From Escherichia coli (GTDB lineage Bacteria > Pseudomonadota > Gammaproteobacteria > Enterobacterales > Enterobacteriaceae), in the NCBI RefSeq assembly GCF_044324875.1, contig NZ_CP172185.1: 64,000 bases of DNA; one strand, 5' to 3'. Below the pieces are notes generated by a model. That model saw nothing but the letters and a program-made list of their open reading frames with translations, was not told the origin of the DNA and ran no database searches. Of the stretch, positions 42,731 through 44,764 are shown in pieces (position 1 is the stretch's first letter; each line of letters opens with the position of its first letter). The position numbers were made by a program, and so were the translations under genes.

Positions 42731-42752
42731 GCAGTCAGTTCGTAAGTCAGAA

Positions 42753-42781
42753 AGCCGCCGACATGTTCGGCGGTTTTTTTT
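42753..42781. terminator. rho-independent terminator after nuoN (shared with convergent yfbM)
   Basis: agccgccga-catg-ttcggcggt followed by ttttttttt. Confidence 0.85.
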
Positions 42782-42796
42782 GGTGCCCTGACCCCA

Positions 42797-43300
42797 TCAC
42801 CCAACAATAACCGTCAGCGCATGATTCCCTTGTCGCAGCATACGTCGATATGCACTAATCAGCTTTTCCATATCAAGCATGATCGAAGCAAAGAGCTGCC
42901 CCTCTAACTCTTCTGAAAAGGTCACACCAGGGTAAATCTCCATTTCATTGAGTCGTTTAATGGAAAACTGTTTACGCAGCTCACTTCGATCCAGTGATTC
43001 CAGGCGATCGATTGTCGCGGCTAACTCCTGATTCCAGGTCAATCCCAGGAAGCCATCTATGCCATCTTCGAGGCTGTGTTCACCAAGCACGGCACGACTC
43101 AGCGGATCATTCTTCGCGGGATCAAAAGCAGAGGTGCCTGTCAGCCCAAAGTGTAAAAAATCCCAGCGTTTATCAATATCCAGTCGGCGTAATCCTGAAA
43201 GCGTGTCATGAATATTGTCCATTAAGGGTTTTTCAGTAGACTCAAGCAGTTGGTTAATCTTTTCTGAGTCAATTTCTGCAAAATAGCCAATCATTCCCAT
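42797..43300 (-). CDS. yfbM: DUF1877 family protein
   Basis: 167 aa, N-terminal MGMIGYFAEIDSEKINQLL; call from length and recalled YfbM sequence. Confidence 0.7.
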   Translation of the reverse strand: MGMIGYFAEIDSEKINQLLESTEKPLMDNIHDTLSGLRRLDIDKRWDFLHFGLTGTSAFDPAKNDPLSRAVLGEHSLEDGIDGFLGLTWNQELAATIDRLESLDRSELRKQFSIKRLNEMEIYPGVTFSEELEGQLFASIMLDMEKLISAYRRMLRQGNHALTVIVG

Positions 43301-43402
43301 TTTATTTTCCTCCGTTGAATTTCATGTTTTGCATCTTAAAACAGACGAGGGAAAATAAAATGTACATGTCGCTTTTTCTGGACTCGCCTCGAGAAATTTT
43401 TA

Positions 43403-44374
43403 TTATTTACTGTTGTATAACAAAGTTATAACCCCATCCACTACCTGAGCCATTTTCTGATAATTCAATCTGTCTGCGGTATCACCGGGCAAGTGGTATT
43501 GTTTATTACGATAAAAAGCGGTGTCAGTAATCATTACTGCGGGAATATCGTGTTGCCAATAATTCAGGTGGTCAGAGAAATCAATACCGGGAATAAACCC
43601 TGGGGCATTCATAGAATAAACAGATAAATCCCGGGATGACAACAATGCCGCTTTTAGCTGACGAACGGCGTTGATATCCTGCATTCTGCCGACCACGGCA
43701 ATAAAGTCTCCCCGATCGGGATAAAGCCAGGACATTGCCGGGTAAGGGTAATCCTGACTACCAGGCGCAGAGTCGTAATAGCCAATCATCTCCAGCGCTA
43801 TCATTAATCTCACTGGACGCTCAAGCGAAGCTGCATGTACCGCGCTCCCCATTTCATCGCTACGAAAGAAGGGCGGTTCTTCCGACGCATAGGCGACCAG
43901 CTGCACGCCAGTTTTCGGTGCTTGCTGCTGTAACAAACGTGCCAGTTCGAGTAATCCTGCCACGCCGCTGGCGTTATCATCCGCGCCCGGCGTATAGGTC
44001 AATTGATCATTTTCATAACTACTGACAGAGTCATAGTGCGCACCAATAATAATCAGCGGTCCATCGGCAGGACCATAATCAGCAACAATGTTTTTGTAGG
44101 GGCCACCCGCAATGGGGACGTCCTGCGAGGTAACTCTGGCACCGCTACTGACAAAGACCTCTTTTATATACTCTGCGGACCTATTCAGATTATCAATATT
44201 GTCGGCACTACGTGGATGTACAGTTTGTGTAAGATAACGAACTGTTTTTTCTAATTGCTCAGGACTTGCGTGTCGGGGCGTTGGCGGTAATGCATTGACC
44301 CAAGGTTGGTAAAAAATAATAAAAGGAAGCGATAGTAGTAATGATATAAAATAAAGAGGTGTCATTTTTTTCAT
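43403..44374 (-). CDS. yfbL: M28-family peptidase (aminopeptidase-like)
   Basis: 323 aa with signal peptide and M28 zinc-ligand region (HYDS, DDNASGVAGLLELA, EE pair). Confidence 0.75.
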   Translation of the reverse strand: MKKMTPLYFISLLLSLPFIIFYQPWVNALPPTPRHASPEQLEKTVRYLTQTVHPRSADNIDNLNRSAEYIKEVFVSSGARVTSQDVPIAGGPYKNIVADYGPADGPLIIIGAHYDSVSSYENDQLTYTPGADDNASGVAGLLELARLLQQQAPKTGVQLVAYASEEPPFFRSDEMGSAVHAASLERPVRLMIALEMIGYYDSAPGSQDYPYPAMSWLYPDRGDFIAVVGRMQDINAVRQLKAALLSSRDLSVYSMNAPGFIPGIDFSDHLNYWQHDIPAVMITDTAFYRNKQYHLPGDTADRLNYQKMAQVVDGVITLLYNSK

Positions 44375-44764
44375 ATGTAAATTATCAATAAAAGGCGTTA
44401 TTTTATAATTATTTATAATGAGTTGTGAGTGTTTATTTTATTACGGTTGGTAGAGATATACAAAAAGTATTTTTTTACAGTGGGTTCGCTATTTTAAAAA
44501 GGAATTCATATGAGGAAAAAATATAATTATGTTATTTATTGGCAGATTGAATTGACAGGGGGCAGAAATCTGAGGGTAAGAAAAGTCAGCAACTACAATC
44601 CACTACATCAACAGACCAGAAATCGCGTGCCGCGATACGCTGGAAATACCCGTAGATTGAACTGGCGGATGGTGTGACTGACATCGGTCAGTGATGACTT
44701 TTTAGCAAACTATGTTCGATCAGTCAGCATATTTGCTGACTGGTCGAATTGACTAACAATGATG

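Follow-up and report, generated by a model that had tools for sequence, protein, structure and literature searches.

Two gene junctions at a variable locus between rbn and nuoN in Escherichia coli: a probably ancestral empty yfbN-yfbO-yfbP site and a deletion relic of yfbK

In a 64,000-nucleotide stretch of an Escherichia coli genome (assembly GCF_044324875.1, contig NZ_CP172185.1; hereafter the window), nuoN lies directly beside yfbM, and yfbL lies directly beside elaD. The annotation of E. coli K-12 MG1655 gives the order elaD-yfbK-yfbL-yfbM-yfbN-yfbO-yfbP-nuoN (b2269-b2276), the same order as in a preliminary description made from the sequence alone. The locus therefore raises the question of whether the window has lost four genes, or whether K-12 has gained what the window lacks.

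The window encodes the nuo genes, yfbM, yfbL, and elaD, without YfbK, YfbN, YfbO, and YfbP. On the plus strand, nuoN (41273-42730), the last gene of the nuo operon, is an open reading frame of 485 amino acids whose product is 100% identical to MG1655 NuoN. The other three genes are on the minus strand. The product of yfbM (42797-43300; DUF1877, 167 amino acids) is 99.4% identical to K-12 YfbM and matches PF08974 at 123 bits (E = 1.7e-35). The full-length yfbL (43403-44374; peptidase M28, 323 amino acids) encodes a protein 92.6% identical to K-12 YfbL, divergent in the signal-peptide region, with a match to PF04389 at 93 bits (E = 2.5e-26). Both matches exceed the curated Pfam gathering score over the full domain. 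ElaD (44765-45973), a CE-clan deubiquitinase of the peptidase C48 / ElaD-SseL type, is 91.1% identical to its MG1655 counterpart and matches PF22103, PF02902, and PF22102 at 162, 107, and 96 bits, all above the gathering score. The intervals first reported between these genes are exact, and the gene calls hold: 66 bp from the nuoN stop to the yfbM stop (42731-42796), and 390 bp from the yfbL start to the elaD stop (44375-44764, 35.4% GC).

We aligned the whole window to MG1655 positions 2362000-2436000, taking the breakpoints from blastn. The two sequences share three collinear blocks with 98.1%, 92.1%, and 97.4% identity. Between the blocks, 17 bp in the window (42779-42795) stand against 2561 bp carrying yfbN-yfbO-yfbP in K-12, and 20 bp (44635-44654) stand against 1556 bp of the yfbK interior. 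The window thus differs from MG1655, as had been stated, and its net shortfall of about 4.08 kb agrees with the earlier figure of about 4 kb of missing K-12 genes. Outside the locus the window is collinear with MG1655 at 97-98% identity, and the two gaps are the sole large differences in 64 kb besides a 91-bp repeat array. In that array (1579-1847), a 91-bp unit of REP-like palindromes occurs in 3.0 tandem copies with 97% identity; MG1655 has a single copy of the unit at 2430913-2431020, between cvpA and dedD.

In tblastn searches, YfbN, YfbO, and YfbP had no match anywhere in the 64-kb window, and YfbK matched only pieces lying in place, chiefly a 12-residue C-terminal piece at 44656-44691. 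The claim that the four genes are absent therefore stands for yfbN, yfbO, and yfbP, which left no trace, and has to be modified for yfbK, which leaves three fragments. These yfbK pieces lie within 44375-44764; no base of the yfbN-yfbO-yfbP (yfbNOP) segment is left at 42731-42796.

The 66-bp spacer between nuoN and yfbM had been described as filled by a single shared terminator. A terminator-like hairpin is indeed located 3' of nuoN on the plus strand (42754-42781), formed by a CCGCCGA / TCGGCGG stem with a 5-nt loop and followed by T8. Its 7-bp GC-rich core stem with U8 is that of a Rho-independent terminator, although a simple consensus terminator scan did not list this hairpin. The predicted RNA fold has a free energy of -26.6 kcal/mol (z = -4.69) on the plus strand and -21.8 kcal/mol (z = -2.46) on the minus strand. 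Because the tail on the yfbM strand is only CUUUCU, a nuoN terminator is a better description than a shared one. The hairpin is kept in K-12, in E. whittamii, and in a divergent genome labelled E. coli SCPM-O-B-8794 (L007).

The 17-bp spacer at 42779-42795 marks the position at which K-12 has the 2561-bp yfbNOP islet, bounded exactly by the stop codon of yfbM on one side and by the T-run of the nuoN terminator on the other. To count the empty arrangement, we used a 301-bp probe across the nuoN-yfbM junction and scored end-to-end matches in complete E. coli genomes. The direct junction was present in 4213 of 5426 genomes (78%), including lineages as different as O157:H7, S88 (phylogroup B2), and C11. 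The succession of yfbM, the identical 17-bp spacer, the terminator, and nuoN recurs in E. whittamii (L008) and L007. The outgroup scan covered four loci, from E. albertii, E. whittamii, Escherichia sp. MOD1-EC7003, and L007 (E. fergusonii and the E. coli representative genome were not returned), which makes for a small outgroup sample. Within this sampling, the comparisons show the direct junction to be the majority state and, on the evidence of the outgroups, the probable ancestral empty site, with K-12 as the carrier of an insertion. The word absent thus applies to yfbNOP in the window, but not in the sense of a loss. Since thousands of complete genomes share the junctions seen here, an assembly error at either junction of the window is unlikely.

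The islet itself differs from its surroundings in composition. The GC contents of yfbN, yfbO, and yfbP are 39.1%, 40.2%, and 43.5%, compared to 57% for nuoN and 51.7% for the whole window. It was found in 1015 of the 5426 complete genomes (about 19%); 985 of these copies (97%) are at least 99% identical, while the flanks of the islet, compared across strains of these kinds, show differences of 2-8%. Copies at 60-90% identity occur in 27 more E. coli genomes. The islet therefore has the contiguous empty-site junction and the atypical base composition of a strain-specific islet; a mobility signature was not found, as its boundaries have no terminal repeats and the islet contains neither an integrase nor an insertion sequence. 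In Pfam, the islet proteins had only weak UBA-like and TPR matches. The islet had no match to phages; among plasmid records, the sole full match was a 365-kb E. coli record, and plasmids of Providencia and Proteus gave short matches at 70%. A PADLOC scan of YfbK, YfbL, YfbM, YfbN, YfbO, and YfbP gave no hit, and thus no support for the islet as a known defence system.

In Escherichia sp. MOD1-EC7003 (L006 6512-7602), a diverged yfbN islet lies beside yfbM at the same insertion site. It has 86% nucleotide and 93.5% amino-acid identity to K-12 and 437 extra bp, as seen up to the point inside yfbN where the locus sequence ends. This diverged version indicates either repeated use of the site or an islet of greater age than its appearance suggests. 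Given the MOD1-EC7003 version and the 27 diverged copies in E. coli, the islet may be an older polymorphism, and the ancestry of the window could once have had the islet and then regained the empty allele through homologous recombination. In the course of events that we favor, K-12-like strains gained the 2.56-kb low-GC yfbNOP islet and the window retained the uninterrupted ancestral junction.

The second gap has a different history. The 390 bp between yfbL and elaD had been called AT-rich non-coding DNA; the base composition bears this out, but the stretch holds yfbK fragments, a promoter region, and a hairpin. In alignments with the intact alleles of K-12, C11, and S88, positions 44375-44509 correspond to the divergent promoter region of yfbL and yfbK. 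The same alignments, together with the outgroups, identify 44510-44634 (plus strand) as the 5' remnant of yfbK, corresponding to nt 1-132 of the intact allele; a 2-nt and a 5-nt deletion have disrupted its frame and removed the lipobox Cys codon. It is followed by a 20-bp island from the gene's interior (44635-44654, plus strand), which MAFFT placed at nt 1483-1502 of the C11 allele. Eighteen of its 20 bases match C11, and it gives an exact six-residue tblastn match to YfbK 486-491. A 1350-bp deletion precedes this island and a 213-bp deletion follows it. The 3' remnant (44655-44694, plus strand) comprises the last 12 codons and the stop codon; blastn and the alignment agree on it, and in tblastn YfbK 564-575 aligns at 44656-44691 with 91.7% identity. 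The vWA and YfbK_C domains of K-12 YfbK (residues 102-568) fall almost wholly within the deleted parts.

At the orthologous site, yfbK is intact in K-12, C11, S88, E. albertii, E. whittamii, and MOD1-EC7003. As three of these are outgroups, the yfbL-elaD gap represents a true loss. The fragments occur in the order and orientation of the gene, an intact orthologue exists elsewhere, and frame and domains are lost. Together, these alignments show yfbK in the window to be a deletion pseudogene relic, lost in place, and with three fragments still in position the 390 bp consist of this relic plus promoter and terminator DNA. The gene was destroyed by the two internal deletions (1350 and 213 bp) in combination with the two small frameshifting deletions, leaving about 125 nt of the 5' end, the 20-bp island, and the last 40 nt. 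Between the convergent ends of yfbK and elaD lies the hairpin (44714-44749), with a 16-bp stem and a predicted free energy of -27.3 kcal/mol (z = -6.9). It is terminator-like without a clear U-run, appears as an inverted self-match, and is conserved in K-12.

A 321-bp probe for the scar, scored by full-length matches, found the identical yfbK scar in 2578 of the 5426 complete E. coli genomes (about 48%), including O157:H7, ETEC, and APEC strains. The yfbK interior is present in 2540 of the 5426, so that about 47% have a yfbK of intact length. Next to the yfbK deletions, the flanking sequence differs by about 28% from all intact alleles.

This divergence belongs to a bounded block of 335 bp (44300-44634), which spans yfbL codons 1-25, the yfbL/yfbK promoter region, and the 5' remnant of yfbK. 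Against every E. coli allele with an intact yfbK it reaches only 70-73% identity; for the flanking genes, the figure with the same strains is 95-99%. The block has diverged further than rbn or yfbL have between the window and E. albertii (80-81% identity). Among the 5426 genomes, identity to the block is bimodal: 2709 genomes have at least 90%, 87 have 80-90%, and 2531 have 60-80%. The nearest relative of the block is L007 at about 80%, in which yfbK was also lost, through a different deletion; no allele closer than this was found that might identify a donor. On its left side the block ends at different positions in the window type and the O157:H7 type, which shows further mosaicism. Because the block is as diverged as sequences from different species, we infer that it represents an allele, comprising the yfbK relic and the adjoining yfbL/yfbK promoter region, that is either old or imported and was probably spread by recombination.

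To the other side of the relic, elaD (34.7% GC) is part of a low-GC segment of about 1.5 kb (about 44670-46160; 35% GC) that is present in the window and in K-12. S88 (B2) does not have the segment, and neither do E. albertii, E. whittamii, MOD1-EC7003, and L007. On its left side the segment reaches into yfbK, where it replaces the last few codons (comparison locus L005, 8830-8975); consequently, the C-termini of YfbK differ between strains with and without elaD. This elaD islet is the third of the separate events that explain the locus. The parts of two earlier studies that deal with its distribution report that elaD is found in K-12 and intestinal pathotypes and is missing from ExPEC and phylogroup B2 strains (Catic et al. 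2007, PMC1847702; Front Microbiol 2025, PMC12575377). That polymorphism concerns the same locus, and elaD in the window is apparently intact; our finding, in contrast, is about the neighbours of elaD and not about elaD. For PMC1847702, our comparison is confined to the terms on elaD distribution, and yfbK, rbn, and the genomic surroundings of elaD did not come up in a term search of PMC12575377.

At least five arrangements of the locus exist among complete E. coli genomes. In the window type, shared with KE55, yfbNOP is missing, yfbK is scarred, yfbL is intact, and elaD is present. The C11 type has an intact yfbK and no yfbNOP; the O157:H7 type has the same yfbK scar as the window plus a 326-bp deletion inside yfbL; the K-12 type has all genes; and the S88 (phylogroup B2) type has an intact yfbK without elaD. 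Megablast with a 1001-bp query extends through the divergent block in yfbK-intact strains, and we used identity bands in its place; the frequency of the window-type arrangement, about 590 genomes (about 11%), is thus an estimate from these bands and not a direct count. The 326-bp yfbL deletion (corresponding to 43787-44113 in the window, which does not have it; L003 4004-4621) is found in O157:H7-type strains, on top of the yfbK scar, and by spread sampling in roughly one third of the complete E. coli genomes. In E. whittamii, most of yfbL was lost independently.

Over positions 30000-54000, the best match to the window is 99.3% identical over 24 kb, and just 18 of the 5426 complete E. coli genomes reach at least 99%. 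The collection excludes Shigella. The lineage of the window is therefore thinly represented in it, or the window is possibly from Shigella.

Taking these results together, we hold with high confidence that the window represents a common haplotype at a spot between rbn and nuoN that is known to vary, and that three separate events shaped it. The preliminary description of a variable point in an otherwise core neighbourhood agrees with the number of arrangements and the collinearity of the remainder. The main alternative is that both gaps are deletions in the lineage of the window, with the K-12 arrangement ancestral and about 4 kb lost in two events. One half of it is borne out, since yfbK was truly deleted and its remnants are in place, and the yfbN-containing islet at the same site in another Escherichia lineage means that the K-12 group is not alone in having the islet. 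As an account of both gaps it is nevertheless very unlikely. The deletion of yfbNOP would have had to leave zero islet bases in the window and to restore the same 17-bp spacer and terminator that are seen in E. whittamii, in L007, and in 78% of E. coli genomes. Moreover, a low-GC islet of which 97% of the copies are at least 99% identical, between flanks that differ by 2-8%, fits a recent gain and spread. That the 390-bp spacer encodes a new product, either a small RNA or a 55-aa protein read from the old yfbK ATG (44510-44677), is a reading to which we give hardly any credence. The open reading frame retains the yfbK start codon and its upstream region, a promoter-like site lies at 44382-44409, and in a few RefSeq records the spacer is annotated with a hypothetical protein (rows H81, H90, H91, and H93). 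However, this frame is a frameshifted read-through of the yfbK fragments, and the ATG is changed to ATA in the O157:H7-type copy of the scar, so the frame is not conserved among carriers. Promoter-like sites show no clear enrichment (8, versus 5.0 +/- 2.1 expected from shuffles), and a permissive-threshold Rfam scan of 42500-45000 found nothing near any gathering score. Neither junction creates a new functional element. The earlier judgement that this is a difference in gene content and not a new system is in keeping with the lack of an RNA-family or defence-model match and with the 55-aa frame not being conserved.

The origin of the divergent block allows more room for other readings. The block and the yfbK scar may have been imported as one piece from an Escherichia-like species, and their frequency of about 50% kept by selection (for example, phage pressure on yfbL expression) and not by drift; we regard this as possible but on balance unlikely. 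The contrast between the block and its 95-99% identical flanks agrees with an import, as does the bimodal distribution of identities, and the closest sequence comes from L007, a divergent Escherichia in which yfbK is deleted too. An agent of selection is suggested by one preprint, in which K-12 without yfbL or yfbO resists phage N4 (bioRxiv 10.1101/2025.09.29.679331). On the other hand, the search for a donor ended at about 80% identity, and the region, composed of signal peptides and an intergenic stretch, is fast-evolving in all Escherichia, as the 71% identity between K-12 and E. albertii illustrates. In addition, an intermediate frequency by itself does not prove selection, and the link to phage N4 was measured in K-12 only. 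A bolder version, in which the scar and the 335-bp block are an ancient or introgressed allele held at about 50% by selection on the yfbL/yfbK region, with phages as a possible agent, appears improbable to us. If it were true, yfbK, yfbL, and the yfbNOP site would owe their repeated, independent decay to adaptation and not to neutral change. Our preferred reading, one common haplotype at a known variable spot, is that of an ordinary strain polymorphism. The polymorphism is real, and it is already implicit in public annotation.

The yfbNOP and yfbK differences resemble a type of variation familiar from the first comparisons of E. coli genomes. The comparisons of K-12 with O157:H7 by Perna et al. 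2001 and Hayashi et al. 2001 reportedly described K-12-specific K-islands, which are said to be short strain-specific segments that interrupt the collinear backbone, often with atypical GC content. The yfbNOP islet (2.56 kb, 39-44% GC) and the yfbK interior are likewise present in K-12 and absent from O157:H7, with identical breakpoints, and there is no conceptual difference between them and K-islands. What is added here is the direction of change, with yfbNOP gained and yfbK lost, and the frequencies in 5426 genomes. For the divergent block, the closest parallel may be the replacement of regulatory regions in E. coli via horizontal transfer or recombination, which Oren et al. 2014 in PNAS are said to have described. 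As in that case, a short, bounded, mostly non-coding block is associated with divergent genes and occurs as two very different alleles between near-identical flanks. In contrast to that case, one allele here is tied to a dead yfbK, so that part of the block is a pseudogene relic.

For annotation, the 390-bp non-coding stretch deserves to be recorded as a yfbK pseudogene relic, and the divergent promoter block offers a modest, perhaps useful illustration of recombinational allele replacement. At this locus it is K-12, and not the window, that is atypical: yfbNOP is present in about 19% and an intact-length yfbK in about 47% of complete E. coli genomes. Because yfbNOP and yfbK are absent from many strains, phenotypes attributed to these genes in K-12, such as the role of yfbO as a host factor for phage N4 reported in the preprint, cannot be assumed for most strains of E. 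coli.
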